Below are positions 11,301 through 43,945 of a DNA stretch of 64,000 nt, in pieces (position 1 is the stretch's first letter; each line of letters opens with the position of its first letter). Made by a program: the position numbers and the translations under genes. The notes beneath the pieces were generated by a model that did no database searches, had not been told where the DNA came from, and worked only from the letters and a program-made list of their open reading frames with translations. The DNA is from Candidatus Omnitrophota bacterium (GTDB lineage: Bacteria > Omnitrophota > Gorgyraeia > Gygaellales > Profunditerraquicolaceae): NCBI GenBank assembly GCA_028716965.1, contig JAQUOV010000002.1:132472-196471 (forward strand). The letters are read 5' to 3'.

Positions 11301-12002
11301 GTGACCGTCATTGCGAGTCCACCGAAGGTGGACAAAGCAATCTCTAATATGCTATATATTGTAGCCACGCCGGTAGGCAATTTAAAAGACATAACTTTGC
11401 GGGCGATTGAGGTTTTAAAAAACGTAGACTTAATTGCCTGCGAGGATACCCGCCACACCAAGATCCTGCTCCAATATTACGGCATCAAAACCCCAACTAC
11501 CAGTTTCTACCAGCATAACAGATTCAGCAAAGGCGAATATATCATGGGCTTGTTGAAAGAAGGCAAGAATATTGCCTTAGTTTCTGATGCCGGCACGCCA
11601 GGCATACTTGACCCGGGATATAATTTGATCAATTTGGCGATAAAAAACAATCTGGAGATGACTTTTATCCCGGGAGCAGCAGCTTTTGTAAACGCACTGG
11701 TACTCTCCGGGAAGCCGGCCCATGAATTTTTCTTTGCCGGGTTTCTTGTTAACCGTCAGCAGGCGCGTAAAAATCAACTGACAAAATTAAAACAACTTAA
11801 ATGTACGGTTATCTTTTATGAATCCTGCCATAGGATTTTGGCCAGCCTTGAAGACATACAGGATGTTTTTGGTGACAAAGAGGTAGTTGTAGCCAGGGAA
11901 CTTACCAAAAAGTTCGAAGAGGTCAAGCGCGCAAGCGCAAAAGATATCCTGGAGTCCCTAAAGAAACAAAAGCCTCGTGGTGAATTCGTAGTAATCATAT
12001 AA
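11301..12002 (+). CDS. rsmI: 16S rRNA (cytidine1402-2'-O)-methyltransferase RsmI
   Basis: 233 aa with LYIVATPVGNLKDITLRAIEVL...IACEDTRHTKILL, typical of the tetrapyrrole-methylase-fold RsmI. Confidence 0.9.
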   Translation: MTVIASPPKVDKAISNMLYIVATPVGNLKDITLRAIEVLKNVDLIACEDTRHTKILLQYYGIKTPTTSFYQHNRFSKGEYIMGLLKEGKNIALVSDAGTPGILDPGYNLINLAIKNNLEMTFIPGAAAFVNALVLSGKPAHEFFFAGFLVNRQQARKNQLTKLKQLKCTVIFYESCHRILASLEDIQDVFGDKEVVVARELTKKFEEVKRASAKDILESLKKQKPRGEFVVII

Positions 12003-12147: not shown

Positions 12148-15100
12148 ATGGCATACAGGCTTAGAAAAATCTTATCTTTTTTCCTTTGCTTTTTACTTAT
12201 TTTCCAGCAATCAGGCTTTACCCAGATTGCCGGAGAGTTGGATATTTCAGGCCGCTTTCTTGCCCTGCGCAACAGTTTTATCCAGGATAGATTCCGCCCA
12301 ATACATTTAAGGTATCTTTCGTACGATCCAAGTATTAACAATTTTAGCCTGCTTTTAGACAAAGGGGATTTTCTGAAGGGACTGTCCCCGAAGGATAAGG
12401 CACCCAAACCTATCGGATGGTTTGGTGCCCCGCCTTCTGCGGGGGTTGTTCCTGAAGAGATCTTGCAACAAGAAACCAAGACCCTGCTAAATTATTTTTT
12501 TATCGGCATATCTTTGCCAAATGAGGCTTTTTGGGTAAACCTTCGGCCTGATTCGCCCAATAATATCATAGATCCGGAGGTTGCCGAAACAGACGTGGGG
12601 CGTATTTTGTTGGAAGCAGACCTGCAGCTTAAGAAAGATACAGCAAGTTTTACCTCTCCCCAAACTCCCGAAGGTAAAGATTATTGGGATAAGTTATATA
12701 AAAAAGCAGAAGAACTATACGGTTCCGAAAATATAACCATACCTACGTTAACCCGCCCCTGGATTGTTCCGGATGAGATCATTATCAGGGAAAGTTCCGA
12801 TAATGCTTATATTTACAAGGCTACTCTTAAAGTTATGCTTGAGCAGGATTATCTGAAGGATTCGTTAGTTTATAATTTTACGGATGGACGCTCCAAGGCC
12901 TTAAACGAGTATTCTTCAGAGCTTATCCGTAATACCATTATCCCCAGGCTAACCAGAGAGATTAACTCTAGTAAAAGGTACGCTCCCTTGAGGCAGGTTT
13001 ATTATTCTTTAATCCTTGCCCAATGGTTTAAACAGAAATTCTACGGCAAATCCGGGCTGTATAGTTATCTTATAGACAAACATAATCTTCAGGGTTTAGC
13101 TTCCAAGTCGCCCTGGTCTAAAACAGATTATTTCAATGCTTACAAAGTTTCTTTTGAACAGGGGGAATACAATATTAAAGAGCCACGTTACACTCCTTTT
13201 GGCCAGGTTATCAGAAGTTATATGAGCGGAGGGATCCAGTTAGGCGGTCCAGAAGCTATAAAGCAAATTATCCACGCCAAACCAGCAGGCAATAGCTCCC
13301 CGTTGTTTTTTAGGAATAATTATATTGTTCAAGGGTTAGCAAAAGTCAGCAGCGCAATAGACGCTCCATATCACATAGAAGCAATAGACATAAACAATAT
13401 TATTCAGGGAGCAACAAACTCAAAACAACAGCCATCTAGTTCGCCGCTGCAGAGCGATGCTCCCGCGGTCTCCCTGGTTGCGCAAAAAAAGCCAGCCGCC
13501 ACTAGTCCTGCGCAGCAGCCAGAAAAAATTAGCAATATATACGGTTTAATCTCGGCTTTCAAGAAAGCGTTGTTCCAAAGAAAAGAACGCGCGCGTTTTT
13601 ATGAAATAAGAAAGCAGTTAATAAAAATGGGCTTTAGCCCCGCTGTTTATGAACAGGCTCTTGAGTATGCATTAGGCCTAAAGGATGCAGAGATGGCCTT
13701 GCAAGCTATCTCTGGCTTGGAACAAAAGTTTAGTACTGGCGAAGGCAAGCAGTCTGCTGAAACCTTGAAAATAATTGTTGTGTTGGCGGAACCGCAAATC
13801 GCCCAATACGCCATTAACTCCTTAGCGGTAGCGTTAACTATTGAATCGACTGATCAGAGCGCTGTATTTGCGTTAAGAGAAATTGCTAAATGCCCATTCA
13901 TAGAACCGCAAATCGCCCAATACGCCATTAACTCCTTAGCGTCGGCATTAGTTACCACTACTGATTTCGGCTTCAGCGAAGGCATTGCTTATGAATTATT
14001 TCATTTAGCCCAAGGAGGAAGAAAAGCCGTTCGAGATAAAGCCCTTTCTTCGTTAGAGATGGCCTTAAGTACTCCAGGGTTAAATCCCAAGATTTATGAA
14101 CGAATAGCTAAATTATTTGAAAGTCTTATCAGATATGCAAAAAAAGATACTGCGCAGGAAGTTATATCTTTTTTGGAATCAATTAGGGATATAAAGGCAT
14201 CGGAGCTAGACCCCGTTGCATTTAAGGTCATGGGTTATGCCTTAGCTAATACAGGTTGGCAGAGACGGGGTCTTGTTCGCAGAACCTCTATTTTTCCATT
14301 GGAGAAAGATGGTCTGCTAAAAAAATTAGCAATAATTATTCATCCTGTAGAAGATAATAATGGTGCTTTCAAAGATATTGAGAATAAGGGCAAGCAGTTA
14401 GAGTCTCGAGGATACCGAGTTATAATCGCACGCGTTGATGGAATAGATGCGCTCTTGGCAGCATTAAAGGCTGCTACCGCACAGCAGAGAGCTTCAGTAA
14501 TAATGATAGGCGGGCATGGGAGTCGTACTAGTATACAACTTGGATTCGGGGAACCCAATTCAAAATTAACAATTAGGGATAAGCAATTAAAAGAAAAATT
14601 ATCAGCCGCGGTCGGCACATTAGAAGAGAACGGCATTATTATTCTAGATAGCTGTAGTACAGGAAAAGGCGGGAGGATATTTTCAAATATCGCCCAGCTA
14701 TTCGCGGATATCTTCCCGCAGGGTTTCGTCTTTGCTTCTCCTTATCCTGTAGTAGCAGAAAAGGGGATCAAGTTGGTTTTCAATAATAAAAACGAAGTAA
14801 CCGCAGTAGAATTTCTCCATGCATATTGGCCGCATGGCTACTATAATTCTGCAGCTAAGAGGGATCTTAATTCTCCCAAAAATTTAGCAATTGCAGAGAA
14901 AGTTCGGGATCCAGAGGATTCGCAAAATGGTTCCGCCAGCTCGCCGCAGGAGACAAAGATTGCGAATAATCAGACATCCTCTCCAATCAATAGTTCAGAG
15001 ACACTATTAGATCCAAAAGATGTATTGAGGCCAGATGGCTGGAGGAAGCTAAAATTAATGGTGTCGTTTGTGAGGGAATTAATTAATTCGGGGATAGAAT

Positions 15101-18100
15101 TTGATGATGGGTATTACCGTGGCCTGTTTGACAATGATATATTCTTAAATGAAGCGGAGAGGGTTTTTGGGGAAAGAAGGTTAATTCCGGCCAGAATAGA
15201 TACCTATATTTATAACCAGGCTACATCTGTTGAACAGGCTTTAATAGAATTGATTGCTAATGCTCAGGATGCCGTGGTAAATGAGAAAAAGATAGGCAGG
15301 TTCGGAGTAGGCGCTTATCAGATGTTCCGGGAACTAAAAAGCCCGGAAGACACAATTATAGTTACTACGTCCACAGATGGCAGGCTCGGCTGGAGAATAA
15401 CTTTTAAGCTTATTGAAGGAGATCTGTGTTGTAAGACAGAGCAGCTATCAGAAGGGATAGAAAAAGGTACCACGGTAGCCGTCAATACAAAGCTTTCATC
15501 CGAAGATGTGCAAGAACGTATCAACTATATAAAGAATAAGCTGCACACCAATGCCAGGAGCAAAATTACGGTTAATGGCATCTTGATCAATAATCCCGAA
15601 CAATACCATTACATTAACGGCGATAATCTTGTTATGCCTGACATAGAGCCGGTTCAGGTTGAGATTACAGGAAAGGGGTATGTAGTAATAGACAAGGGAA
15701 GCGGGATGAGTCCAAAGACCATTTGGGAGAAGTTTTTGGTTCCCAAGGGTACTACTAAGGCCATTGAAGGTAAGCCGGCAGAAAAAAGTTCAGAGATCAG
15801 GGAAGAGACGCATTTGTTCTATTCAAATATAATATCCGGTGAAGGGCAGGGAAGAGTAGCTGTTCAAATCAGCGGTGTAAAGAATATTGAAGTCCCGATT
15901 TTCGGGATGAATATCCCTGAAGAGTTGATCATTGAGCTTCCGCATGATGCATGGCTTCCGGAGTCAAGAGATAAAATCGCCATGGACAGCGTTACAAGGG
16001 AGGGGTTGCTTGAGGTAATGCGTAAGCTTACTTCTCCCCAAAGAAGCGATATAGCCAATAGGTACGCTTTAATTAACGGAGTAGCTTCATTATTAAGGCA
16101 TATTTTAAAGGACAGTGAAGATAAGTCATTATTGTATGAACTTAGAAGGATGTGCAGCGATTATATACAGGCTGAAGGATTTGGAAAGATATTCCTGCCG
16201 AACAGAAAAGAACTCGCTTTGTTACTTCTTTCTCCTGAGCAAGAAGTAATATTTTTGGATGAGCAGATGTTTTATTTTCGCCCTAGTAATATACCGAGCG
16301 TGGAGAAAGTAAGGGATTTTGTTTCTGCGGCATATGAATTATATATTGGAAACCTGGATGATCCGGAGGAAAGTAATATATATATTGAAGGCAGCTATCC
16401 GGATGGCAGAGGATGGATTATTTTGGATAGAAAGGTCTGGGAAAAGCATAAAGCTGATCCGGCCTGGCTTAATGGATTCTTGAATTTTAGTATTGGATAT
16501 GGAGATGAAGGGAAAAACTTTGGCACTATTATAAAATCTTCGGCGGGAAAGGTATCTTCCGGGGAAGCAGGTCTATCTACGGACCAATTATCTTCGGGGC
16601 CCAGCATCGGCAAAAAAGGGTTTAAAATCAGCCAGGAAGAAATAGATGCCCTGAGAAATGATTTGATTTCCAGCAAGATGATTAAAGAACAACTGGATGA
16701 TTTTGAAGAAAGGGACGTAAATTTTATTATAAAGATAGCTGAAGAGTCAATTGCCGCAGGGGAGATTAATAAGGGCAATATAGATGAAAAAAGAATTAAA
16801 TTACATAGTTGGCTTGCATTGCTCAAGGATTTAAAGAGGTCTTTGCCTGAGGGGATGTTTAGCGAGGCATGGCTGCAAAAGGAACTTTATCAGGTGAAAT
16901 TTAATATTTTTTCTTCCCAAGAGATTATTTCTAGCCCCGAAGTTGCTAACGGAAAGTTGTATTTCTATATTACGCGGTTTGGCGATGAAACTGTCCATTG
17001 GACTACATTTGAAATAAATAAGCAGGGAACGGTTATCTCTTTTGAAGGTGCGCGTCCGGTATTTACAAGCCAACATATATATCTTATAGAAAAAGATAGT
17101 AATCTGCATAAAATATCAATAAGGAATAGCGGTGAAAATAAGATTATTCTTGAGAAGGTAGTTGGAGAGTACTTGGAAGGATCAAAAAACGAGAATCTAC
17201 TAGCGCTTGTACAAGAAGGAGAAATCATTTCAATTAAGATCATTTCCGGAGAGAATGTTGCAGAATTCTGCCGTCTGCCCGCACAAGAGATGGCTGGTAT
17301 GTTGTCCGAAAAACCTTCTGCGGTAGTATGTAACAATAAGTATGTGGTATGGTTTAGCCATTTCGGTCCCCAAATGATATTTAAGGTAAATTCCTCCGGA
17401 GATATGCAACAGATTAAAATCAAAGGAGTGGACCGGATTAAGACCATAGCAATATTCCCAAACGGAAATATTGCTATTGCCGGGCATAAGAAAACGTCTT
17501 TCCAGGATGATTTCCTTAATAAATACAGCGCGTCAAGCTCGCTGAAAGCGGATTACTTCTCGGGCATAAACAGAAAGGCAGAAATTATTTTTGTCGATGA
17601 TCATGGGAAGACGGATGAGTATTATGTCCAGGATGAGGGTATTTGGCAGAAGGATGATGCGGTATATTTTCTTAAGGATAAAGGATTAGTACGCCTTAAC
17701 CAAAATGGGGAAAGTAAAATGTTTGCCTTGCCGAACATCGACCAAATACTTGGAAGTAAGAAAATAGATTCCTTGGTATTTTCCGGAAAATACATTTATT
17801 TAGTTATTGCTGGCAGGGATGTCCCTTTGCCCGGAACAAACCCGTTATACAGAATAGAAGTTGATAAGGAGGAAGCAAAGGAGATTACCGATGGTTCGTT
17901 GTCCCATACATTGATTACCGCAGGGGAACAGTCATATTGCATATCGCTAAAGAAGGGCGGGAGCAGGAAAATCCGGCGCATAGAAGAAAACGGGGAAATG
18001 GTAATTATTTATAATGAATGGGATGTAAAAGCCGCAATTCCGGACGGCAATTCGCTGTTTGTCGTTCGGGAAGAAAGCAGGCAAGGCATGTATAACAAAT

Positions 18101-21100
18101 TGTCATTATACGAAATAAGTCAGGATGGCAAGGCAAAGTTTACTTATTCCTTAGAGGGTGTTGATTTGGAGTTCTGGAAGATGGAAAATGGAGAATTTAT
18201 GTTTTTAGAAGATTATGATGAGTTGGCCAGCCAGGAAGATGAGGTAAGCCTTCACGCCAATCCTTCTGAACCGTTTAGAACATTAAGAAGGGTTAACATT
18301 TATAATCAGCGCACAGGAGAGGCTGTAAAAAGGAGCGCAATATTCTTCGAAGGTTCTTACAGAAATATGGTTTTCTTAGACGGGCATCCTTTTGCGGTAG
18401 AATCTTATCAAATAACTGCCTACCCGAATCTATCCTTGCTTATTGAACAGAGAGAATATTTGAGGAAGAATTTAACTGTTCTTCAAGAAAGATACCTGCC
18501 GCAATTGTTCGGCTTATTGTCTGTGTTGAGGCAGAATGAAAGGGAGCGACTTTTGCAGTCTTTGGTTACTCATAAACAGTGGATGCCGGCGTTGATTTTC
18601 TTGTCCCCCGAAACCATATTGAAAGCCGGAGAAGGTATTGAACAATTACGCCAAATTCTAGATGACGTGGTTTATAAGGCCAAGAATATAAAGCAGATCA
18701 GAGAAACGTTTAAATTTATCAACTTTATATTTAGCACCATTAAAGACGAAAAGATAGCTTTACGGATTACAGGAAGATGGTGCAAGGTTTTCTTAAAGAA
18801 CCCGGATTTAGCAGAAGTAATAGCCGATAAAATGCAGGAGAAATTTGATGTACCGCAAGATGGATTTATTGAAATGTTTGCACGTAGATTTGGCATGGGA
18901 ATGAATGCCGGGGGAGTAAGTACGGGGAAAAACCCGTTAGAATTTTATCAGGATTCAAAGGATCTGGCTTACCTGCCTAGCGAGGTCAGATTATATTTAG
19001 ATTTCTTAGTCAGTGAAGAATTAATGGTCCCTGTATTCTTATCTGAAGATAGGTTTTCCGGAAGAAAAACCAAAGCCGAGATAAAGGGGGTTGATTTATC
19101 AACCCTAATCCGCCTGCGTGAGTTATCGCCAGATACCATCCTGCAGCATCATGATGTGCAATGGGAAGATGTGGTATTGGGGGTCTTGGGCTTGAACGGC
19201 TCTGACATACAGGGGATCAGGAGGGATATTGCCGGGGCGGTAAATAGCCAAGATAAAACCCAGCAATACTGGATCAGGGAGTTGGCACAAAACGCAAGAG
19301 ATGCTATCCGTGCGATGTCGGGCATAGAAGTAAAAAGTGGATTCTTGGGACATGGGTTTTATACTGCATTTGCAGGGGGTTGCAATGAAGTGCGCATAAG
19401 AACCGGCAATGGCACATATGCCTATGAAATAGTCTTAAAGCCGAGTTATGACCCTAAAGGGGACATGGTTGACATTGCGGTTGTAAGAATGACCCGTTAT
19501 GAGAGCAATTTTAAAGGGACTCAAATACAGCGCGTGAATTATTATAATAGTACGGCAGATGAAGATGTGATTTTGGGTGTATTGTATACTACCCGCCAAG
19601 TAAAACGTTTTTTAGGAGCAATACCTTCAACGGGCGAAGATGGGGTTTCAGTAATTTACAATAATGAGTTAATTAATGAAGATGGGCACAGGAGTGAAAA
19701 TGCTGCAAGGGTTATAAAGATAGGAAATGGCGTTACACAAACGCCCAATAAAGATGGCTATTACGAATGGGTTGTTAGTATTACCGATCCGGCAGGAATG
19801 GATTTGCATACGATTTTAAACAAGCTTCTGCCTCCTGATGTATCGGGCAAGCCCGCGCAAGTGTCGCCAGCCAAGGGCGCCATAGGGGCAAACTTAGAAT
19901 CAAGTTTTAGTAAAGATAAAATATTGCGTGTTACGGTAGATAGGTTGTATGTGGATGATGTCGACTCAAAATATACCGAACTTGTCCCGCAGGATATCCG
20001 CCAGGTTTTATTAAAAAGAGGCTGGAATATCAATTTTCCCCAAGGCACGCCTGTTACTAGAACCAGGATAGGCGTAATGGATAGTCAATATTACAGGCCT
20101 TGGATTGCCGCCTTGGCTTTAAGAAGCGCCGTGGTTTTATATCTGAACGAAGGCATTCCTGAACTGGAAGGCTTAATTCCAAAGGACTATATATATTCTA
20201 ATTCCAATGCTATCCGAGTATCGCCAGATATCCTTGAAGACGCCGAAGCGATAAATAACGGTATGCCGGAAAAAGTTGACTTTTCAAAATACAATAATCC
20301 ACATTTGTTGGTGCAGTTGTTTACCGTGATTAAAGTAGCGTGGAAGGAAGAGCGTATCTCGCTTTGGGAAATTAAACAGAGAGTTCTTGAGGAGTATAAA
20401 AAGACTGCCGATAAAGTTAGCCTTGAAGGTATATTGCCCCCAGGCTTGCAAGGTTTACGCGATAGAGCAGAATCTTATATAACGCAAAGCATAAATAAGC
20501 GCAGGGTTGATATCAGTTTTTTGATGCAAGAGCCCATTATTATTGCCTTTCAAGAATTTGTTAACATATTGAATCGGTTGATAAAAGTAAACAATAAAAC
20601 TAATTTTGTCTGCGATATAGGCGCTCCTTACAGTGCTTACGCCAGTGCGTTTGTGCCGGCAGAAGGGGCTATTACATGGAATCTTGCTTATTATGAATCT
20701 ATCCTCCAAGAGCTTCTTAATTTTATATCCACTGGGGCCTTAGATGGAAACTTCTTGAAATTTATTGAGACTTATATCCATGAATCTAGCCATACGGTAG
20801 AGGGAAGTTACCAGGAAAAATATAAAAATGAGTGGACGCACCAGGCAGCCAGAAATGTCGGCGGGGCTTTCGGTTGGATTATGGATTTATTGTATGGAAG
20901 ATTGCTTTCTAACATGGGGACCCCTGAAGAGTTCCGGGAAATGTCGAAAAAAGAATTAGAAGAAATGGACTTTACCATTGAGGCATTAAGGGAATCATAT
21001 GAAAAAGTCAGTAACTACATAGACCAACAAACTCCCCCCATAGGTCTCTCGACATTAGAAAAAGTAGAATTTAAGCAGCCTGCCGCTTCGCCGATAATAT

Positions 21101-24100
21101 TAAAAGAGTCTTCAAACATCTCGAATCAGCCTATAGATACAGGTCGGCGCAGATTTATTCAATTACTCGGTTCATTCGGATTAGCGAGCCTCATCGTACC
21201 AGTTCAAACTCAAGCTCAAATGTTATTCCAGTGTATTATTCAGGTAGTAACTAATGTGTTAACCGATCGTGAAATTAAGCATATTAATGCGTGGGTTAAG
21301 GAATTAATAAGGCTGGCTGATCAAGGCAATGTTGCGGAATTTCAGCAACAATTTAATAGGATGTATGAGGGGAAACCAGTTAGGAAAGATGAGGAAAAGG
21401 ACCCGACCATAACAATGAACATATCGGCTCATAGCGTGGGTTTTAGTATGGAAGCGTATACGAGACCCAAAGTCATCATTCCAAATAAGCTCTTTTTATC
21501 TAAAAATTTTTATAATTGGAAAAGTGAAATCAAGCAAGAGATTGTAAAACAGATCTTGAAAAATGCTTATGGGCTCGGAGCCCCAGAGTCATTTGAGGTC
21601 CTTGAGATTCTTGATGCGATCAGCTCAAACGAAAGACTTTTTAATATGCTAGACATGGAAGAGCAAAAATTGCTTTATACATACATAGGAAAGGCTTCAG
21701 TCAGCCAGGCATTGCTTTCTACGGAGAAAGATGTGTACCCTGCTATTGGCAGATGGATAAATTCTATCCATGATTTATATGAACAGGATGGAAAGTGGTC
21801 GGAATATGTTAAAAAATATCTTGATTCGCGCTTTTGCTCTGATGAGCAGTTATATATTTTATTGAGCCGCGGAGGGTTTGAATTATACACAGGGACATTT
21901 AACCGCGTGTTTGATGAGTTGCTAAAGAGAATACAGGCCAGTGGAAATATTATAGCATGGTTAAGCAAAGTTGATTCTGCGGGAAACATGACAAGCGAAT
22001 TTTTGTTATCGTTATCCGGCAGAGGAAGGCTAATTAGGGTGATTGATGCTTCAGCCGTTAATTTGGCCCAAAAAGAGAAGATGCTAAAACAGATTTGTGA
22101 CATAATTCGTAATATTGCATCAGCTAATGCAAAAGAGTTAATGGAGGAAAAGACTAAAATGGCGTATATTTCTAATGCCGTAAAAGATATCTTTAATTAT
22201 GGCAATAGTAACGTCAATGACTATTTAAAAGAGATTATTCTGCAGATAAAAGATAATGGGGGTATATATGGAAAAGCGTTTTCGCTTATGATTATGGCTA
22301 AATTCCAAAATGTTTTTGGTTCGACCCCGGAAACCGAAGAAATAAGAGCGGTGCTTGATTATGCTGCCAGCCCTCCATACGAACAAATACTCAAGCCCGG
22401 GAAGCGCTTAGTAGTATTAGTCGACTTCGCAAATTCCGCAAAAGATTTCTTAGGTGAATTAGTAAAGCAGTTGAGCAGTAATTATGGAGGAAGATATAAA
22501 ATAAGAAGCCATAAGCCTGATGTGCAGCATGGGATTGTAACCGTCATTGGAGGTTCAATTAATGGGGTGGATATAGAATTCCATCTTGCCAGAGGCATAT
22601 CCGGAGATGAATTTAGGGAAACGATGGAATCAGGAAAGTATTCAATTATTTTCACACGGCATCATTCTTATGAAGGTGGGGATTTTCTTGGGGTAGGATC
22701 AAATACCGTAATTCCGCAGGTAATCGGGACAGTTGGGACAGGCAAGGGTATTGAAAATAACGCTTTTTCAATTGTGCTTAGCGAAGAAATCGCGAAGACA
22801 TTCTCTTCTAGAACAGGGTGGGATGAGGTTTGGCATAATATGCGCAAGCGGTTACCCAAAAGTATGGATAATTATTTACCGCCCAATCACATTTCATTTT
22901 TGATATCATACGTATTGAATGCTATAGATACGCGTTCAACAAAGATAGATCTCAACGGCGATATTCATAACAAGCAACTGATAAAGACAATAGTGGTAGA
23001 TGGTGGTTGCGGCGGGATTAATCGAATTCCATCATATTTAAATAAGTATGGTTATGCAATAGAGAAATTTAAGAATCACCCAGCGGGAAGTCCATTATCT
23101 ATTAGACAACAAGTGGTCCCTCTAGGCAGTGCAGTGGTTTCTGGTTCATCTTCACCTGCGGACAAGATAGAGAGAGGGGGGAAAGGCGTGGATTATAGGG
23201 CTCTTGCAATAAACAGGATCCGCGATGCCTTTCAGAAAGTGCTTAACCGTAATCCGGAAGATAGAGAGGTCATGGATGTGTTTGGGTTTATAGAATCCGA
23301 CCCAGACGGAACTTATTTGGAAGAAAGAACTTATTTCGCAGTGGCGGAGGCTTATGCTAACGAAATAAAAAGAGCGGGTGCCAGCTCGCCGATTGGCATT
23401 AGCAGAACCCAGGAAGAGTTGGCTTACTACCAGCAATTAAAGGAAAATGGACCGCTGGTATTTGACAAGGATAATGATAGATGGTTTTTGGATGAAGCAT
23501 GGTCAGGTTATGATTATCATAGTGTCCGCAGTTTATTAACACCAATAGATCTAAAGAATCCGGATACATTAGAAGAGGAATTGGGCAGGATAAATGCGAT
23601 TTTCACCAGATTTGATTTAAGTAAGGTAAATAGCTTTGGCGCACTTTATGCATATATAAGATGGAGATTGTCTCCTAATCGTTACGGCGCTAATTCAAGG
23701 GTTTCCGTGGAAACCCTTGTAAACATTATTGAACAGGCACGGGATGGCAAAGAAATCAATATTGCTTTTACGGATCCGTTACTAACCCAAATATTGGATA
23801 AGGCCAAAGATCTGGTTGAGACTGATAAATCCTCCAGCTCGCCGATTAAGTTGTCTTCTAGATTAGCTATGATAGAAACGCAGATATATAATCTTGAGCG
23901 GCTGCTTTTAGATGAGGAGAAGTTAAACAATGGAGAGTGGCTTGAGCTATATTTAGCTGCAGAAGGACAAATCGGGGATGAAGCACTTTATTATGGTAAT
24001 CTGAAAATTGTTCAGGATGCCAAGGGTAATGAATCCAAATTACACCAATTAAAAAGAGCCTTTGAGCCTTATGTAAAAGGGCTTTTAACCAAGGCCAAGG

Positions 24101-26769
24101 ATTTGAAGTCTGCAAGAAGCCCCTTAACCGAAGGCTTTGTGCTTAAAAATGAAAGCCGGGGTAGAATTCAAGGGTTAGCGGAGAAATGGAAGGCAGGCTT
24201 ATTAAGCGGTCTTGATTTATTGTCAAGACCGGAAATCCCCAAAGAAGAATTCAGGATTTTGGCCCGCTTTGTTAATAAATTGGTAGAAAGCGACATAAAT
24301 GCAATAAGCGTTCCATCTGATCCGGATACACAGGTAATTCTTGACACCTTTACTATAGGTTACCCCCGCGCAGAAATAGATTTTAAGAGTACGCTTGCAG
24401 TAAAGGTTTCAGAAACAGCCCCCGATAGCGGATCTAAGTCTATTGGCCTCTTAAAACTCAAGCTGGAAAAGCTTATTGAAATAATAGATGTTTTAGAGGG
24501 GGTTATAAATTCCGAGGGGGTTATTGATACAGAATTAATAACTGCTAGTCATTATAGAGAGCCAATGAAGGTTATAACACAGAAGTTTATTGATGGGGTA
24601 ATGGAAAAGATCCCGAAACCACCTGAATTATCCTCGGGTCAGATTAAACCTGCCAGCTCGCCAGCCGAGGCGAAGAGCCCTGTAGCTTCAGAGCTTGAAA
24701 TACGCCCGGAAGAAGCCGCCAGGTTATTGAGAGAGGCAGCTCAGGAGAACTATGAAAAATGGTGTCTTTTGGGCGAGCGATTAAAAGTAGCAAGGCGTAT
24801 TTTAGTCAAGGTTCCCGGACGCGATTCTCGCGGAGGACATGAATTTCCTTTGGGGGAGATAGCCGCTACCCTGCCGATATTGATCAAGGCGTTGGTTAAT
24901 TCCGGAAAAGATATTGAAGAGCTAATAGTGCAATGTGATTCTTACCCGGAATTGGTAGAAGCGATAGGAGAAGATAAGGTCAAATTAGCTGATCCTATAC
25001 AGACAACTGATGAATTAAGGTCTATCTATTCCCCGGATTTGGTTATTGATTTTGACACGGTAGCATTAGGCGAGGAGATTCCAGAAAGCACAGTAAAATT
25101 TCCAGTGGCAAGGCTATGGATGTCTTCAGATCGCCTCGGTGAAATGCGTGAAATTTTAAGATCAGCGCAATTAATCACTCCTGAATCAGGAGAGACAATT
25201 ATTAAGAGAGAAAAGAAAGAAGATGGACAGAAAACAATATTTGTAAATCCACATAGCGATAGCAATAAGAATGATAATGTAGATTCTTGGGTAGGCTTAA
25301 TACAGGAGCTTGTCTCAAAGGGCTATAAAGTTGTACTTAATTCAGGCAAAGAGGGGGGAATAGACCAGGCACATACAAAAAATATATTAGAAAAACTTAA
25401 AAAAGAAGTTGAATCTGGGGACGTGGAAGAGTTTAAAGGCAGTATCAGAGATCTTCTAGATACCTTTTTAAGTAAAATAGACGGTGTAATAACAATAGAT
25501 AGCGGTATATTCCACGTAGTACATAATTTATATTCCTTGCCCACAGTCGTTTTTATCACGTCAAATACGCTAGGATGGATTCCGCAGGAAAAAGAGGAGT
25601 TATTATTTAAGAGGATTCAATACTCAGATTTTAAAGATTATTCCACTATAGTAGCATTATTACGGAATTTACTAGAGAGAGAAAAAAAAGTAAACACAGG
25701 CTCTCCGGTGGTGGAGAATAATATAGAAAAGATAAAGAAATATACTTTAAAATCACTCAAGGATTTTGGCTATCCAGAAAATATCTTTGGTGGCATTACT
25801 AGACTAGAAAATGATAAGGCTCGCGCTCAGGTTATCAACGGCAAAGTATTCTTTAATGAGTTTTGGGTAGATAGATTGTTTGAGGATGAAATAGAACGCC
25901 TTTGCGCACACGAAGTTCAGCATCTATCGACAGAAGATCTTATAGGTAAAGGCATCAAATTAGGCGGCCTGCAAAAGGATAAAGGGTATATAGAGTTGAT
26001 GTTACGCATAGGCAGTCGATTTGACCGGATATTTGAAGAAAAAGGATCTGTGTTAACAAAACCTAAAGAATTCTATCAGGATCCATGGGAGGCATTGTCG
26101 CTTTTGCGGGGATACCAAATTTATTTGGACCAGGTAGCAAGAGGCATAAAAGTTTCTCCGCAAGCATATGAATTCATAGAGGCATTTGAAAATGATGATA
26201 CTATTTTCTTGAATCCTAATTATGTGCAACAGATTACGAAAAATTTTATACCAGAAGATTACGGGTATGAAAGGGTTACTTATGAACAGCTGGATGGAAA
26301 AGACGAGAATGGGGGAATGAGCAGTCCTTTGTTAAAACAAGGGCAAGTAAGCAAAGAGTCAGACGTTGGAGGCATTGACATGCGTTATCTGCCTAACAAT
26401 ATGGTTCTCCAGCCGATGGCGCCTAATAACTCCTTGAATCAGAGATTTATTCCTAGGGCCGCATCTTTAACTATTTCTGATAAGGAATGGCTTGAGATAG
26501 AAAAGATGGCAAATTCAGGCATAGCTCCTTCTTGTGAGCGATTAAGAGAGTATCTTTTATCTTTGCAGGACCCAAACAGCCAGATAGATAAAGTCCTTGC
26601 CTGTATTGCAGATATCCTGAGGCAGGAGGAAGAAAAAGCCTGCTGCACGGAATCTTCCTTAAAGGAAATACTGGTCCTGCTTGAATCAGGCAAGCCGGAT
26701 AAAGAATTAAGATTGGCATTAACAAAGATCCAGGTTTTAGCTAAAGAACCGCAGTTGATAGAGCAATAA
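12148..26769 (+). CDS. Giant secreted multidomain protein (4873 aa) with caspase-like, two GHKL ATPase-like and GT9-like modules
   Basis: One uninterrupted 14,622-nt ORF. The N-terminus has a signal-peptide-like stretch (MAYRLRKILSFFLCFLLIFQQSGFTQIAG). Internal motifs are a His...Cys dyad (IGGHGS...LDSCSTG), GHKL N-boxes ELIANAQDA and ELAQNARDA each with a G1-like box, a GT9 motif ITIDSGIFHVVHNLYSLPTVVF, and two HEXXH motifs. Confidence 0.85.
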   Translation: MAYRLRKILSFFLCFLLIFQQSGFTQIAGELDISGRFLALRNSFIQDRFRPIHLRYLSYDPSINNFSLLLDKGDFLKGLSPKDKAPKPIGWFGAPPSAGVVPEEILQQETKTLLNYFFIGISLPNEAFWVNLRPDSPNNIIDPEVAETDVGRILLEADLQLKKDTASFTSPQTPEGKDYWDKLYKKAEELYGSENITIPTLTRPWIVPDEIIIRESSDNAYIYKATLKVMLEQDYLKDSLVYNFTDGRSKALNEYSSELIRNTIIPRLTREINSSKRYAPLRQVYYSLILAQWFKQKFYGKSGLYSYLIDKHNLQGLASKSPWSKTDYFNAYKVSFEQGEYNIKEPRYTPFGQVIRSYMSGGIQLGGPEAIKQIIHAKPAGNSSPLFFRNNYIVQGLAKVSSAIDAPYHIEAIDINNIIQGATNSKQQPSSSPLQSDAPAVSLVAQKKPAATSPAQQPEKISNIYGLISAFKKALFQRKERARFYEIRKQLIKMGFSPAVYEQALEYALGLKDAEMALQAISGLEQKFSTGEGKQSAETLKIIVVLAEPQIAQYAINSLAVALTIESTDQSAVFALREIAKCPFIEPQIAQYAINSLASALVTTTDFGFSEGIAYELFHLAQGGRKAVRDKALSSLEMALSTPGLNPKIYERIAKLFESLIRYAKKDTAQEVISFLESIRDIKASELDPVAFKVMGYALANTGWQRRGLVRRTSIFPLEKDGLLKKLAIIIHPVEDNNGAFKDIENKGKQLESRGYRVIIARVDGIDALLAALKAATAQQRASVIMIGGHGSRTSIQLGFGEPNSKLTIRDKQLKEKLSAAVGTLEENGIIILDSCSTGKGGRIFSNIAQLFADIFPQGFVFASPYPVVAEKGIKLVFNNKNEVTAVEFLHAYWPHGYYNSAAKRDLNSPKNLAIAEKVRDPEDSQNGSASSPQETKIANNQTSSPINSSETLLDPKDVLRPDGWRKLKLMVSFVRELINSGIEFDDGYYRGLFDNDIFLNEAERVFGERRLIPARIDTYIYNQATSVEQALIELIANAQDAVVNEKKIGRFGVGAYQMFRELKSPEDTIIVTTSTDGRLGWRITFKLIEGDLCCKTEQLSEGIEKGTTVAVNTKLSSEDVQERINYIKNKLHTNARSKITVNGILINNPEQYHYINGDNLVMPDIEPVQVEITGKGYVVIDKGSGMSPKTIWEKFLVPKGTTKAIEGKPAEKSSEIREETHLFYSNIISGEGQGRVAVQISGVKNIEVPIFGMNIPEELIIELPHDAWLPESRDKIAMDSVTREGLLEVMRKLTSPQRSDIANRYALINGVASLLRHILKDSEDKSLLYELRRMCSDYIQAEGFGKIFLPNRKELALLLLSPEQEVIFLDEQMFYFRPSNIPSVEKVRDFVSAAYELYIGNLDDPEESNIYIEGSYPDGRGWIILDRKVWEKHKADPAWLNGFLNFSIGYGDEGKNFGTIIKSSAGKVSSGEAGLSTDQLSSGPSIGKKGFKISQEEIDALRNDLISSKMIKEQLDDFEERDVNFIIKIAEESIAAGEINKGNIDEKRIKLHSWLALLKDLKRSLPEGMFSEAWLQKELYQVKFNIFSSQEIISSPEVANGKLYFYITRFGDETVHWTTFEINKQGTVISFEGARPVFTSQHIYLIEKDSNLHKISIRNSGENKIILEKVVGEYLEGSKNENLLALVQEGEIISIKIISGENVAEFCRLPAQEMAGMLSEKPSAVVCNNKYVVWFSHFGPQMIFKVNSSGDMQQIKIKGVDRIKTIAIFPNGNIAIAGHKKTSFQDDFLNKYSASSSLKADYFSGINRKAEIIFVDDHGKTDEYYVQDEGIWQKDDAVYFLKDKGLVRLNQNGESKMFALPNIDQILGSKKIDSLVFSGKYIYLVIAGRDVPLPGTNPLYRIEVDKEEAKEITDGSLSHTLITAGEQSYCISLKKGGSRKIRRIEENGEMVIIYNEWDVKAAIPDGNSLFVVREESRQGMYNKLSLYEISQDGKAKFTYSLEGVDLEFWKMENGEFMFLEDYDELASQEDEVSLHANPSEPFRTLRRVNIYNQRTGEAVKRSAIFFEGSYRNMVFLDGHPFAVESYQITAYPNLSLLIEQREYLRKNLTVLQERYLPQLFGLLSVLRQNERERLLQSLVTHKQWMPALIFLSPETILKAGEGIEQLRQILDDVVYKAKNIKQIRETFKFINFIFSTIKDEKIALRITGRWCKVFLKNPDLAEVIADKMQEKFDVPQDGFIEMFARRFGMGMNAGGVSTGKNPLEFYQDSKDLAYLPSEVRLYLDFLVSEELMVPVFLSEDRFSGRKTKAEIKGVDLSTLIRLRELSPDTILQHHDVQWEDVVLGVLGLNGSDIQGIRRDIAGAVNSQDKTQQYWIRELAQNARDAIRAMSGIEVKSGFLGHGFYTAFAGGCNEVRIRTGNGTYAYEIVLKPSYDPKGDMVDIAVVRMTRYESNFKGTQIQRVNYYNSTADEDVILGVLYTTRQVKRFLGAIPSTGEDGVSVIYNNELINEDGHRSENAARVIKIGNGVTQTPNKDGYYEWVVSITDPAGMDLHTILNKLLPPDVSGKPAQVSPAKGAIGANLESSFSKDKILRVTVDRLYVDDVDSKYTELVPQDIRQVLLKRGWNINFPQGTPVTRTRIGVMDSQYYRPWIAALALRSAVVLYLNEGIPELEGLIPKDYIYSNSNAIRVSPDILEDAEAINNGMPEKVDFSKYNNPHLLVQLFTVIKVAWKEERISLWEIKQRVLEEYKKTADKVSLEGILPPGLQGLRDRAESYITQSINKRRVDISFLMQEPIIIAFQEFVNILNRLIKVNNKTNFVCDIGAPYSAYASAFVPAEGAITWNLAYYESILQELLNFISTGALDGNFLKFIETYIHESSHTVEGSYQEKYKNEWTHQAARNVGGAFGWIMDLLYGRLLSNMGTPEEFREMSKKELEEMDFTIEALRESYEKVSNYIDQQTPPIGLSTLEKVEFKQPAASPIILKESSNISNQPIDTGRRRFIQLLGSFGLASLIVPVQTQAQMLFQCIIQVVTNVLTDREIKHINAWVKELIRLADQGNVAEFQQQFNRMYEGKPVRKDEEKDPTITMNISAHSVGFSMEAYTRPKVIIPNKLFLSKNFYNWKSEIKQEIVKQILKNAYGLGAPESFEVLEILDAISSNERLFNMLDMEEQKLLYTYIGKASVSQALLSTEKDVYPAIGRWINSIHDLYEQDGKWSEYVKKYLDSRFCSDEQLYILLSRGGFELYTGTFNRVFDELLKRIQASGNIIAWLSKVDSAGNMTSEFLLSLSGRGRLIRVIDASAVNLAQKEKMLKQICDIIRNIASANAKELMEEKTKMAYISNAVKDIFNYGNSNVNDYLKEIILQIKDNGGIYGKAFSLMIMAKFQNVFGSTPETEEIRAVLDYAASPPYEQILKPGKRLVVLVDFANSAKDFLGELVKQLSSNYGGRYKIRSHKPDVQHGIVTVIGGSINGVDIEFHLARGISGDEFRETMESGKYSIIFTRHHSYEGGDFLGVGSNTVIPQVIGTVGTGKGIENNAFSIVLSEEIAKTFSSRTGWDEVWHNMRKRLPKSMDNYLPPNHISFLISYVLNAIDTRSTKIDLNGDIHNKQLIKTIVVDGGCGGINRIPSYLNKYGYAIEKFKNHPAGSPLSIRQQVVPLGSAVVSGSSSPADKIERGGKGVDYRALAINRIRDAFQKVLNRNPEDREVMDVFGFIESDPDGTYLEERTYFAVAEAYANEIKRAGASSPIGISRTQEELAYYQQLKENGPLVFDKDNDRWFLDEAWSGYDYHSVRSLLTPIDLKNPDTLEEELGRINAIFTRFDLSKVNSFGALYAYIRWRLSPNRYGANSRVSVETLVNIIEQARDGKEINIAFTDPLLTQILDKAKDLVETDKSSSSPIKLSSRLAMIETQIYNLERLLLDEEKLNNGEWLELYLAAEGQIGDEALYYGNLKIVQDAKGNESKLHQLKRAFEPYVKGLLTKAKDLKSARSPLTEGFVLKNESRGRIQGLAEKWKAGLLSGLDLLSRPEIPKEEFRILARFVNKLVESDINAISVPSDPDTQVILDTFTIGYPRAEIDFKSTLAVKVSETAPDSGSKSIGLLKLKLEKLIEIIDVLEGVINSEGVIDTELITASHYREPMKVITQKFIDGVMEKIPKPPELSSGQIKPASSPAEAKSPVASELEIRPEEAARLLREAAQENYEKWCLLGERLKVARRILVKVPGRDSRGGHEFPLGEIAATLPILIKALVNSGKDIEELIVQCDSYPELVEAIGEDKVKLADPIQTTDELRSIYSPDLVIDFDTVALGEEIPESTVKFPVARLWMSSDRLGEMREILRSAQLITPESGETIIKREKKEDGQKTIFVNPHSDSNKNDNVDSWVGLIQELVSKGYKVVLNSGKEGGIDQAHTKNILEKLKKEVESGDVEEFKGSIRDLLDTFLSKIDGVITIDSGIFHVVHNLYSLPTVVFITSNTLGWIPQEKEELLFKRIQYSDFKDYSTIVALLRNLLEREKKVNTGSPVVENNIEKIKKYTLKSLKDFGYPENIFGGITRLENDKARAQVINGKVFFNEFWVDRLFEDEIERLCAHEVQHLSTEDLIGKGIKLGGLQKDKGYIELMLRIGSRFDRIFEEKGSVLTKPKEFYQDPWEALSLLRGYQIYLDQVARGIKVSPQAYEFIEAFENDDTIFLNPNYVQQITKNFIPEDYGYERVTYEQLDGKDENGGMSSPLLKQGQVSKESDVGGIDMRYLPNNMVLQPMAPNNSLNQRFIPRAASLTISDKEWLEIEKMANSGIAPSCERLREYLLSLQDPNSQIDKVLACIADILRQEEEKACCTESSLKEILVLLESGKPDKELRLALTKIQVLAKEPQLIEQ
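13789..13941 (+). repeat. 39-bp perfect direct repeat (two copies, 13789..13827 and 13903..13941) inside the giant gene
   Basis: gaaccgcaaatcgcccaatacgccattaactccttagcg occurs twice 114 bp apart, encoding EPQIAQYAINSLA in two consecutive helical repeat units. Confidence 0.9.
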
Positions 26770-27077: not shown

Positions 27078-27617
27078 ATGAAAGAGAAAGCTAAAATCTT
27101 GGATAAAGAAGGGGTTCAGCGCGCATTTACGCGTATTGCCCACGAAATAATTGAGAAGAATAGCGGCATAGGCGAACTTTGCTTGGTAGGCATCAGGAAC
27201 CGCGGAGTTTATATAGCCCAAAGAATAGCTGATTGTATAGGCAAAACTGAAGGCAGGAAGATACCCGTAGGCGCGTTAGATATTACACTTTACCGTGATG
27301 ACCTGGCTTTGGCCAGTGGCCAGCCGTTGGTGCGCAAAACCGAGATCGATTTTGACATTAACAACAAAATACTTGTACTTGTTGATGATGTGCTTTATAC
27401 CGGTAGGACGATCAGGGCCGCATTGGATGCGCTAATTGATTTTGGCCGGCCGAGAACAATACAACTGGCTGTGTTAATTGATAGGGGTCACCGCGAACTG
27501 CCTATACGGGCGGATTTTGTGGGGAAAAATATACCAACATCCCAAAAAGAATCTGTAGAGGTGCGCTTGCTTGAATCAGACGGCAGGGATGAAGTAGCGA
27601 TCATGGAGAAAGATTAG
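27078..27617 (+). CDS. pyrR: Bifunctional pyrimidine operon regulatory protein / uracil phosphoribosyltransferase PyrR
   Basis: 179 aa with the PRTase motif [16 protein letters not shown] and the N-terminal PyrR pattern ([20 protein letters not shown]). Confidence 0.9.
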
Positions 27618-37263: not shown

Positions 37264-37322
37264 CTATGAAAAAACCTGCTTGACGGGATGTCGCTAAATA
37301 AGAATATTAGGGGGTGTTTCAT

Positions 37323-37925
37323 ATGGCGCAGGAAATTAAAGATTTGATTGACAGAATACAGCAGGAAGGGGTAATGGCGGCTGAAAATCAGGCAGCGCGG
37401 ATAAAAACCGAAGCAGAATCTTTAGCCCAAAAAATAGTCGCAGAAGCAAAGAAGCAGGCTGAGAAGATTATCGAACAGGCCAACTCCGAGGCGAAGAAAT
37501 TGGATGACTCTACTAATGCTTCTTTAAAGCAGGCAGGCAGGGACCTGCTGATTAGCTTAAGGAAGGAAATCAATTCCATGCTTGATAGATTGGTTAAGCT
37601 GAATATACACCAGTCTTTGACCATAGAGGAGCTAACCAGAATTATCAGGGACTTGATTAAGAATGCGCCGCTTTCCTCAGACAGCCAAATCGTCATTTCC
37701 CTCCCCCAGCAAGATAAGGAGAAAATAGAAAAGGGGTTTTTGAAACAGTTGGCGGAGGAGGTTAAAAAACAGGTAATCTTAAAATCTTCCGATGAAATAG
37801 ATAGCGGGTTTATCATCAGTTTTGATTCCGGAAAGTCAACGTTTGATTTTAGCGATCAGGCTTTAGCGGAGTATATATCAGGATCCCTAAGGCCCGAACT
37901 AAACAAGTTTTTAAAATCAGAATAA
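37323..37925 (+). CDS. atpE: V-type ATP synthase subunit E
   Basis: N-terminal Ala/Glu/Lys-rich coiled coil (AQEIKDLIDRIQQEGV...AEAKKQAEKII) and C-terminal globular domain. The ATG at 37323 follows the GGGGG RBS. The track ORF starts at an upstream GTG at 37314. Confidence 0.7.
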   Translation: MAQEIKDLIDRIQQEGVMAAENQAARIKTEAESLAQKIVAEAKKQAEKIIEQANSEAKKLDDSTNASLKQAGRDLLISLRKEINSMLDRLVKLNIHQSLTIEELTRIIRDLIKNAPLSSDSQIVISLPQQDKEKIEKGFLKQLAEEVKKQVILKSSDEIDSGFIISFDSGKSTFDFSDQALAEYISGSLRPELNKFLKSE

Positions 37926-38462
37926 ATGGGAGCTTATTATACATATTTAATCTCCAGCCTGCCGATGCTTAACTTTTCTTCTCCTGTCCCTTTTAGTCCG
38001 GAAGAGTTCCTTGCAAAATGCAATGGTTTAATTCCGGAAAGAGAGATTGAGCTTTTGCGCAATGCATGTTATGAAGATACATCTTTCTTAAATACAGCGC
38101 CGGATGCAACAGGCATATTGTCAAGATGGTCCGGTTTTGAGGTAGCTTTAAGAAATGAATTGGCCCGCCTCCGGGCTAGGCGTAAAAAGATAGATGCTTC
38201 AAAATTCATCCGTCTTCCTGATAATCCCGAAGCATCTATCAGCCATGTGGCTATGGCCGCTTATAGAAGCACGGCTATATTGGAAGCGGAAAAGGTATTG
38301 GACCAATCCAGGTGGGGTTTTCTGGAATCCTTAAGCCTCGGACATTATTTTGACTTTGATTTTCTTCTGATTTATCTTTTAAAGCTGAAGATTTTGGACC
38401 GCTGGGATAAAGTGCAGAAGGCGGATAAAGAACATTTATTTAATCAGGTAGTTGCAAGCTGA
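37926..38462 (+). CDS. Hypothetical protein in V-ATPase operon (DUF2764-like position, as in Chlamydia/Treponema atp operons)
   Basis: 178-aa ORF between atpE and atpA, the slot occupied by the DUF2764 protein in chlamydial and spirochaetal V-ATPase operons. It is too short for a canonical subunit C(d). Confidence 0.4.
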   Translation: MGAYYTYLISSLPMLNFSSPVPFSPEEFLAKCNGLIPEREIELLRNACYEDTSFLNTAPDATGILSRWSGFEVALRNELARLRARRKKIDASKFIRLPDNPEASISHVAMAAYRSTAILEAEKVLDQSRWGFLESLSLGHYFDFDFLLIYLLKLKILDRWDKVQKADKEHLFNQVVAS

Positions 38463-40206
38463 TATGAAAAATAAAAGATTAGGGCGTATAGTAAGGGTTA
38501 ATGCTAATATGGTTGTCGCAGAAGTTGATGGCCATATAATTCAGAATGAAGTGGCCTATATTTTGCATGGCAGCGAGCGTTTAAAAGCAGAGGTAATCCG
38601 CGTAAGGGGTAAGCGTGCCGAGATGCAGGTCTATGAAAATACCGCGGGATTAAAGGTTGGCCAGGAGGTTGAGTTTAGCGACGAATTGCTTTCTGTTGAA
38701 TTGGGCCCGGGTTTATTGGGCCAGATTTTTGACGGCCTGCAAAATCCGCTTCCGGCCTTAGCGGAAAAATGCGGCTTCTTCCTTAAGCGCGGGGTATACC
38801 TTGAAGCCTTACCTGATGAAAGAGAGTGGGATTTTACCCCTTTGGTAAAACCAGGGGAGAAAGTTTTGGCAGGAACCTGGCTGGGTTTTGTCCCGGAGAA
38901 GATATTCAAGCATTATATCATGGCTCCTTTTTCGCTCTCCGGCAGTCTTGAGGTAGTAAGTATAGTTGCTCAGGGCAGGTATAATTTAAAGCAGCCGGTT
39001 GCCCGCTTGAGAAGCTCTGATGGTAAAATGCACGATGTTTTCCTGCAGCAGATCTGGCCGGTAAAGATCCCCATCCAGGCCTACAAAGAAAAACTCAGGC
39101 CGCTTGAGCCGTTGGTAACAAAAATGCGTCTGATCGACTCTCTCTTTCCTGTCAGCCGAGGAGGTACATATTGTATCCCCGGGCCGTTTGGAGCGGGTAA
39201 GACTGTTTTGCAGCAACTGACCAGCCGGCATGCGGAGGTGGATATAGTAATTATTGCTGCCTGCGGTGAACGCGCCGGTGAAGTGGTCGAAACTCTTAAG
39301 ACCTTCCCGGAGCTAGTTGATCCGCGTACGGGTAAGCCTTTAATCGACCGCACGGTAATTATCTGCAATACCAGTTCTATGCCTGTAGCCGCGCGGGAAT
39401 CAAGCGTTTATACTGCCGCGACAATCGCAGAATATTACCGCCAGATGGGGTTAAATGTTTTATTGCTGGCGGATTCTACATCGCGCTGGGCCCAGGCCAT
39501 GCGTGAAATGTCCGGAAGGCTGGAGGAGATTCCCGGCGAGGAAGCATTTCCGGCCTATCTTGAATCGCGGATAGCTTCTTTCTATGAAAGAGCAGGTTTA
39601 GTGCGTTTACATAATGGTTTGACAGGTTCTGTTACCATCGGAGGCACGGTAAGTCCTGCCGGAGGAAACTTTGAAGAGCCGGTTACCCAGGCTACGCTTA
39701 AAGTAGTCGGGGCTTTCCACGGGCTTTCCCGGGAACGCTCTGACGCGCGCAGGTATCCGTCGATAGATCCGCTGATCAGTTGGAGTAAATATAAAGGTTT
39801 CATTGAAAAGGAAAAAGAAGATCTCGGCCATGAGTTCTTGCGTAGAAGCAATGAAGTTTTTCAGATGATGAAGGTTATTGGCGAGGAAGGTACATCGCTT
39901 AGAGATTATATCGAGTACCTCAAAGGGGAATTCTTCGATTTTGTTTATCTGCAGCAGAATGCCTTTGATGCCGTGGATGAATCTACCTCCAAGGAAAGGC
40001 AGATTTATATATTTGATTTCATTCATGATATCCTGCTTAGTGAATTTAAATTGGAGGATAAACAGGAGGCGCTGCATTTCTTCCAAAAGTTAAGGCAACT
40101 GCTAAAAACATGGAATTCCGCAGCATGGGATAGTGAAGAATTCAAAAAAATAGAAGAAGAGATAGGGATATTTTTGGAAGAGAAGAAAAGCAAGAAGGCA
40201 GAATAA
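38452..40206 (+). CDS. atpA: V-type ATP synthase catalytic subunit A
   Basis: 584 aa with Walker [10 protein letters not shown] and the A-subunit non-homologous insert region. Confidence 0.95.
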
Positions 40207-40207
40207 G

Positions 40208-43944: not shown

Positions 43945-43945
43945 A

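Follow-up and report, generated by a model that had tools for sequence, protein, structure and literature searches.

Why should a giant protein that bears an export signal carry what looks like part of an enzyme of lipopolysaccharide (LPS) synthesis? The question is raised by a 64,000-nucleotide stretch of DNA from Candidatus Omnitrophota bacterium (assembly GCA_028716965.1, contig JAQUOV010000002.1, positions 132,472 to 196,471), referred to here as the window, in which one open reading frame (ORF) encodes a protein of 4,873 amino acids (aa) that is identical to an entry (P0001) in a library of representative proteins. An earlier note, made from the letters of the sequence, had pointed to a segment at 25230-25620, near the C-terminus of this protein, as the C-terminal half of a heptosyltransferase of glycosyltransferase family 9 (GT9). 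The flagged peptide is exactly present, running from IFVNPHSD at residue 4364 (nucleotide 25237) to VVFITSN ending at residue 4473 (nucleotide 25566), and the interval brackets it, the reading frame being that of the ORF and not frame 1 of the interval. The evidence collected below indicates that residues 4182-4518 are very probably a complete, very divergent GT9-type module and part of the variable cargo of the protein. The wider statement, that this variable module is active on a non-LPS acceptor in the cytoplasm of a target cell, is one towards which, taken as a whole, we lean slightly.

The borders of the unit indicate that more than half an enzyme is present. Ser-Pro junctions lie on either side of it and delimit about 337 residues, a length that a GT9 enzyme has when whole and not when halved. 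Comparison with Pfam, which the earlier note had proposed as a check, gave a divided outcome. The isolated module scores 19.7 bits (E 5.6e-4) against PF01075 (Glyco_transf_9) and the whole protein 14.8 bits, both under the gathering score of 22 bits, while three relatives pass as whole proteins (P0006 with 27.3, P0014 with 23.3, and P0011 with 22.2 bits). As far as sequence goes, the subfamily is tied to GT9 by these relatives above threshold, the window sequence itself being sub-threshold. In NCBIfam, the heptosyltransferase I model TIGR02193 matches with an E-value of 5.6e-6, module residues 174-288 running collinearly with positions 175-280 of the 320 in the profile, and four more heptosyltransferase models match as well. 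None of the equivalog cut-offs is reached (25.8 bits against 185.3 for TIGR02193, 20.1 against 170.2 for TIGR02201, and 11.7 against 134.6 for TIGR02195).

A search of PDB sequences with the module by phmmer gave no match, and the relationship became evident through the family, represented by an alignment of 20 module sequences drawn from the matches of an exhaustive search. Pfam GT9 is matched by 12 of these 20 members, with a best E-value of 4.2e-7, and the 20-sequence profile finds WaaF (1PSW) in the PDB with an E-value of 2.4e-5. When the family was aligned by hhalign with a template built from Escherichia coli WaaC, WaaF, and WaaU (from NC_000913.3), the match had 96.3% probability and an E-value of 1.7e-9 over 279 columns, pairing query positions 44-343 with template positions 1-329 and spanning WaaC from residue 1 through its C-terminus.

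Modeling led to the same family. Prediction with AlphaFold2 (AF2) from the single sequence was unusable (pLDDT 37.6), while prediction with the family alignment gave two Rossmann-like lobes with a pLDDT of 87.5 and a pTM of 0.86. In a Foldseek comparison of this model with the PDB, the best eight matches were all GT9 structures (WaaC, WaaF, and 3TOV from Veillonella; E 2.7e-8 to 2.3e-7, TM 0.52-0.61), and the five GT9-fold representatives in the PDB all outranked every other GT-B structure. Both the reading of the segment as a heptosyltransferase C-terminal half and the expected GT-B fold with a C-terminal Rossmann lobe nearest to WaaF and WaaC were therefore borne out. What the earlier note had not seen is the N-terminal lobe, which is also present, upstream at residues 4216-4345. 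The significance of the GT9 match comes from the family-level profiles and the fold, not from the Pfam score of the window sequence. That score and the empty phmmer search are what could be held in favor of a chance resemblance, in which a generic Rossmann or flavodoxin-like domain unrelated to GT9 merely looks like one. This explanation is hardly credible given the full-length collinear profile-profile alignment, the rank of the five GT9-fold structures above all other GT-B structures, and the three relatives over the Pfam threshold.

In its general plan, the module is much like WaaC and WaaF of E. coli and the Veillonella protein, with which it shares the two-lobe GT-B fold, approximately the length, and a register that stays collinear between the first beta-strand and the helix at the C-terminus. 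It also keeps the D-[ST]-G-x-x-H motif, an acid as ribose ligand, and the phosphate loop, which in the clade of the window includes the Lys. At the position of the base, a G-E pair in the window sequence is aligned with the G-D of WaaC. Beyond this, the sequences have moved far apart. Identity is just ~12-17%, the base position holds a Glu in place of the Asp, the acceptor lobe is acidic, and the module has an additional helix at its N-terminus and, in the beta1-alpha1 loop, 10 inserted residues. The setting is different too: WaaC and WaaF are free cytoplasmic enzymes encoded next to LPS genes, while the module forms part of a 4,873-aa protein that bears a signal peptide. LPS genes are missing from the window, and when it was searched by tblastn with E. 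coli WaaC, WaaF, WaaU, and RfaD, neither another GT9 gene nor any gene of the heptose pathway came up.

Could the module nevertheless be an ordinary inner-core heptosyltransferase of the WaaC/WaaF type that became fused into a giant ORF by chance? WaaC and WaaF are indeed its best matches in both sequence and structure. However, its score is far under the equivalog cut-off (25.8 bits against 185), the protein that hosts it has a signal peptide, and the module is missing at the same slot of a relative. In addition, no canonical stand-alone LPS enzyme is found among the 24 matching clusters as far as these were examined. The net charge of the acceptor lobe is -9 against +8 in the N-lobe of WaaC, and WaaC R189 is replaced by D4371. 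Of the other basic residues with which WaaC binds Kdo2-lipid A (R60, R63, K98, and R120), R60 and R63 lie in a region where the alignment has a gap, and the column of K98 is read as non-basic. Judged from these aligned positions, the module has lost the basic patch by which WaaC binds Kdo2-lipid A. Because the acceptor lobe is acidic, the LPS core is unlikely to be the acceptor, and a chance fusion of an LPS enzyme is very improbable.

The donor side tells a different story. In heptosyltransferase I (HepI), G12-D13 provides the catalytic base, T187/T188 and K192 contact the pyrophosphate, E222 the ribose, D261-T262-G263 bind the heptose and the alpha-phosphate, and H266 binds the heptose (bioRxiv 10.1101/2021.06.16.448588). 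These residues were transferred to the module via the hhalign alignments and the columns of the family alignment, and their counterparts are given in Table 1. Within the family, T4449 is invariant and D4451 is kept in 19 of the 20 members. The near-invariant columns (F4365, N4367, W4381, N4398, G4400, F4429, T4449, and D4451) fall mostly in the donor-binding lobe. An acidic residue (D or E) stands at the base position in 13 of the 18 members, and L, M, G, F, or S in the other five. Compared with three orthologous modules from other genomes (L001-L003, 79-80% identity), the ratio of non-synonymous to synonymous substitution rates (dN/dS) is 0.14-0.17 in both lobes; a value of about 0.15 means that the module is under purifying selection.

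From this pattern, we infer that the module is probably catalytically active, as a predicted inverting nucleoside diphosphate (NDP)-sugar transferase. The GT9-like cassette would then be metal-independent, with the C-lobe supplying the donor site (the FVNPHSxSN(K) phosphate loop, D4406, and T-I-D-S-G-x-x-H) and the N-lobe presenting G4236-E4237 as the base. An ADP-heptose-like or other NDP-sugar would serve as donor, and a non-LPS molecule as acceptor. There is a known case in which the same fold serves another purpose. PnsB1 (NDF1), which has the GT9 fold and belongs to the NDH complex of chloroplasts (PDB 7WFF, chain a), is a structural subunit for which we know of no transferase activity. 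By analogy with it, the module could be a non-catalytic GT9 fold that binds a nucleotide-sugar, a nucleotide, or a glycan, or that acts as a scaffold. We regard this as rather unlikely, since the most conserved columns are mostly those of the donor lobe (T-x-D-[ST]-G, FxN, LNxG, and W4381), the window's clade retains all mapped HepI donor ligands together with the acidic base position, and a dN/dS of ~0.15 holds for both lobes.

To see how widely the family is distributed, 1.84 billion representatives were searched exhaustively with phmmer, which returned 24 proteins (50%-identity clusters) at E<1e-3, the window protein included. Four modules are ~80% identical to that of the window; two belong to fragments, and the proteins that hold the other two have 4,375 and 7,391 aa. 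One module with 42% identity sits in a 1,454-aa protein, and the others (26-38%) occur mostly within proteins of 600-3,117 aa. The family is therefore nearly always found inside long modular proteins, with one member (P0009) that looks stand-alone. The members that could be traced to a named genome are from Omnitrophota, and the three genome matches L001-L003 are all metagenome-assembled genomes of 'Candidatus Omnitrophota bacterium'. More distant proteins with a GT9-like module carry NUDIX, HTH, sigma-70 region 4, GHKL ATPase, methyltransferase, and GT5 plus alpha-amylase domains, the last combination being found in P0015. A word-indexed homologue search with the module, and then with the family alignment, gave no matches; this type of search seems not to reach long proteins, the N-head matches that it listed all being of 704 aa or less.

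A different GT9-like family was retrieved with an alignment of the C-lobe and its T-[IV]-D-[TS]-G pattern. Its members, stand-alone proteins of ~410-430 aa encoded in four distant metagenome loci (L007 3802-5088, L008 1-2187, L009 3-1763, and L010 165-1394), have a GIGD motif and are more canonical, and two of them appear by eye to be fused to a C-terminal Cys-rich zinc-ribbon and a region resembling methyltransferases dependent on S-adenosylmethionine. Being a separate family, they were set aside as evidence on the window module.

What, then, is the protein in which the module resides? It belongs to a class of proteins that share a conserved domain at the N-terminus, the N-head (~365 aa), for which no match was found in Pfam, in NCBIfam, or, by profile search, in the PDB. 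The sources named for its 434 homologues are nearly all Omnitrophota/Omnitrophica, with one Margulisiibacteriota and two given as 'bacterium', and all of the homologues inspected start with a Sec-type signal peptide. At the other end is a C-tail of ~150 aa with the signature GGIDxRxLP...CC, common to the window protein, P0002, P0004, P0006, and L011. The smallest members (P0070 and P0077, ~609 aa) consist of head and tail and nothing else. Between the two, other N-head proteins carry PGK, GAPDH, and phosphoglucomutase (PGM) domains, as well as HD and HEAT, and P0025 has the HEXXH cassette located behind the GT9 module of the window protein. The best that Pfam offers for this cassette of the window is DUF5700, at an E-value of just 0.2. 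The class is thus made up of a Sec signal peptide, a conserved N-head, variable enzyme cassettes, and a conserved C-tail, and is apparently specific to Omnitrophota.

What relatives with a module of ~80% identity have in common with the window protein is limited to its first ~360-450 residues, the GT9-like module, and the last ~150 residues, except in P0002, where one more cassette is shared. The middle cassettes of the 4,375-aa and 7,391-aa relatives are mostly unrelated to those of the window, and the giants of L002 and L003, which lie upstream of pyrB, are of at least 4,420 aa, their start falling outside the locus. Proteins collected through their GT9 module will of course all have one, and the view that the module is a constant core of the giant protein was rejected as an ascertainment bias once the syntenic slot had been seen in two loci (L011 and L012) that were reached from the best N-head match and not from the module. 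In these, the slot between gyrB-gyrA-glmS-rsmI and pyrR-pyrB-pyrC (8001-11433 in L011, 800-4232 in L012) holds head, HEXXH, HprK-like, and tail segments, in a protein of ~1.15 thousand amino acids (kaa) in two overlapping ORFs and without the GT9 module. The module is therefore variable cargo and not a constant core, and the rsmI / pyrR slot is a cassette-hypervariable locus.

The earlier note had suggested that the enzyme could glycosylate the Ser/Pro linkers of its own protein, or a host or prey surface. Ser-Pro motifs like those that border the module are about 10-fold enriched. The window protein has 12 copies of [AGST]SP[ILVA] and 10 of SSP, against 1.2 expected from shuffles in either case, and [AGST]SP[ILVAF] occurs 50 times in 54 tails of N-head proteins where 5.7 are expected. 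The x-S-S-P-hydrophobic motif is a class-wide junction signature at cassette boundaries. A precedent for modification of this kind is given by TibC and AAH, enzymes of the bacterial autotransporter heptosyltransferase (BAHT) group with a GT9-related GT-B core as in the module, in which a heptosyltransferase-like enzyme modifies Ser of an exported protein (PMC4358343). Accordingly, the module might O-glycosylate x-S-S-P serines prior to export, while these are still in the cytoplasm of the producer, its targets lying in the same chain or in head-tail paralogs. The hallmarks of BAHT enzymes (N-terminal beta-barrel, beta-hairpin thumb, and four-Cys iron finger) are absent from the module. Among the motif-bearing N-head proteins listed (all of 704 aa or less), none has a GT9 domain on record. 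Of 23 family proteins in which it was counted, 14 lack the [AGST]SP[ILVAF] motif. Since module and motif do not co-occur, and since the cassette is missing from the orthologous slot of a relative, self-glycosylation of the linkers is disfavored, and we consider it improbable.

The presence of a glycosyltransferase in a secreted giant protein had been called unusual, which overstates the matter, since such modules in giant proteins of Omnitrophota have already been published. GT5 and GT1 domains of GT-B fold accompany peptidase, methyltransferase, and NUDIX domains in the giant 'Archaeovorins' (bioRxiv 10.1101/2023.11.21.568195). The likeness is one of domain style, the window module being GT9-like instead, its host shorter (4.9 kaa), and the head/tail frame distinct. 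Modules of the GT9 or heptosyltransferase type are mentioned neither in that study nor in a 2026 survey of long proteins from Omnitrophota. GT-B domains (GT5, GT1) in Omnitrophota giants are already known; the GT9-derived subfamily is rare and previously unflagged.

Where could such an enzyme act? The donor substrates are found in the cytoplasm only, while the carrier has an export signal, and for this reason the likeliest site is the cytoplasm of a target cell, host or prey, into which the GT9 cassette of the exported carrier would be delivered. The cargoes of the class, which need a cytoplasm, count for action beside other cytoplasm-type cassettes. Such a role fits the domain content of Omnitrophota giants and the reported predatory or parasitic life of Omnitrophota (bioRxiv 10.1101/2023.11.21.568195). 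We put this site forward tentatively, at a lower confidence than catalysis itself. A molecule of the host or prey may then be what is modified.

A model for delivery of this kind can be sought among toxins. MARTX toxins have conserved N- and C-terminal regions around variable enzyme cassettes that differ between close relatives. If the head-cassettes-tail proteins were a MARTX-like delivery system, the GT9-like cassette would be a glycosylating effector of GT-B type that uses the ADP-heptose or NDP-sugars of the target cell and modifies molecules of that cell. The analogy with MARTX is one of architecture only. The window protein is without RTX repeats or a recognized CPD, and we consider a delivery system of this kind doubtful. 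The bacterial glycosylating toxins known to us are GT-A enzymes.

Several observations speak against action on a non-LPS acceptor in a target cell, or against parts of it. The signal peptide of the giant protein was called by eye alone, the window is without secretion genes or delivery machinery, and the arrival of the protein in another cell is itself inferred. The base position of the module holds a Glu and not the Asp that has been called strictly conserved in HepI homologues, and 5 of the 18 family members have no acidic residue there. A Lys matching K192 is seen in the window's own clade only (4 of 5) and is unconserved elsewhere in the family. To this are added the score of the window sequence under the Pfam GT9 cut-off (19.7 against 22 bits) and the AF2 model, which was built on just 20 sequences.

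If action in a target cell were true, a GT9-derived effector would be a new effector type, and cassettes that reach other cells would bear on how Omnitrophota act on their partners. The change of the acceptor lobe from basic to acidic implies that GT9 chemistry may serve non-LPS acceptors outside the TibC/AAH family. Were the module an inactive relic, or a domain that does no more than bind, the result would amount to a routine refinement of annotation. A larger pattern was exposed along the way, of one conserved rsmI / pyrR slot with a constant head and tail and very different cassettes in close relatives. This head-cassettes-tail logic in a hypervariable slot is the more intriguing by-product.

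Table 1. Features of the giant protein gene and its GT9-type module (window coordinates; residue numbers are those of the protein, or of WaaC where so marked).
Feature	Coordinates	Strand	Evidence or remarks
Host ORF	12148..26769	+	flanked by rsmI-like 11301-12002 and pyrR 27078-27617
Signal peptide, Sec-type, MAYRLRKILSFFLCFLLIFQQSGFTQ	12148..12225	+	by-eye reading; n/h/c pattern ending GFAQ in 20/20 homologues inspected
N-head, conserved domain of the protein class	12226..13323	+	434 homologues
Upstream junction motif ASSPA, residues 4169-4173	24652..24666	+	sequence
Complete GT9-type GT-B module, residues 4182-4518 (~337 aa; very probable)	24691..25701	+	profile matches, fold, dN/dS
Extra N-terminal helix ahead of first beta-strand	24703..24783	+	AF2 model helices 11-30, 32-36
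N-terminal (acceptor) Rossmann-like lobe, residues 4216-4345, net charge ~-9	24793..25182	+	AF2, hhalign
G4236-E4237, aligned to WaaC G12-D13 (catalytic-base position)	24853..24858	+	hhalign
C-terminal (donor nucleotide-sugar) Rossmann lobe, containing flagged segment 25237-25566	25225..25698	+	profiles, hhalign
FVNPHSDSNK loop; H4369/S4370 = WaaC T187/T188, K4374 = K192	25240..25269	+	hhalign
D4406 = WaaC E222 (ribose hydroxyl ligand)	25363..25365	+	hhalign
TIDSGIFH motif; D4451-S4452-G4453 = WaaC D261-T262-G263, H4456 = H266	25492..25515	+	hhalign
Downstream junction motif NTGSP, residues 4516-4520	25693..25707	+	sequence
Next cassette; HEVQH = possible Zn-peptidase motif at 25909-25923	25702..26316	+	55% identity to C-terminal cassette of P0025
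C-tail of the class (SSPLL...GGIDMRYLP...CC...)	26317..26766	+	43% identity to end of head+tail P0070 (609 aa)

The gene lies in a housekeeping neighborhood on one strand, with gyrB, gyrA, glmS, and the rsmI-like gene upstream and pyrR, pyrB, pyrC, and carB downstream. Farther downstream are DNA repair genes and, beyond the pyrimidine genes, a V/A-type ATPase operon at 37314-44401 with subunits E, A, B, D, I, and c/K. Five tRNAs are found in the window, which has no further Rfam matches. The gyrA of the window (6887-9316, 809 aa) is free of inteins, unlike that of L011 (1124-4879), in which the 1,251-aa product includes an intein with a LAGLIDADG homing endonuclease.

The other cassettes of the window protein have no NCBIfam match, and a few of them bear recognizable features. 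N-terminal motifs of GHKL/sacsin-like ATPases occur in two cassettes, IELIANAQDA at ~15260-15290 (residue ~1040) and IRELAQNARDA at ~19010-19045 (residue ~2290), with a weak, sub-threshold match to HATPase_c_3 nearby at residues 1174-1197. A stretch at ~14420-14750 (residues ~759-870) weakly resembles DUF4347 or RavJ-type peptidases (E 0.01-0.06), and a DUF5050-type beta-propeller cassette at ~17470-17920 (residues 1775-1924) scores 30.4 bits, over its cut-off. In the middle of the ORF, residues 2994-3022 (21127-21213; TGRRRFIQLLGSFGLASLIVPVQTQAQ) resemble a twin-arginine (Tat) signal peptide, and a similar Tat-like internal segment, DRRTFLGALGGLAGLTFLL, is found near residue 3786 of P0004. 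Such internal segments may reflect the capture of whole genes, signal peptide included, as cassettes, or may have an effect on topology.

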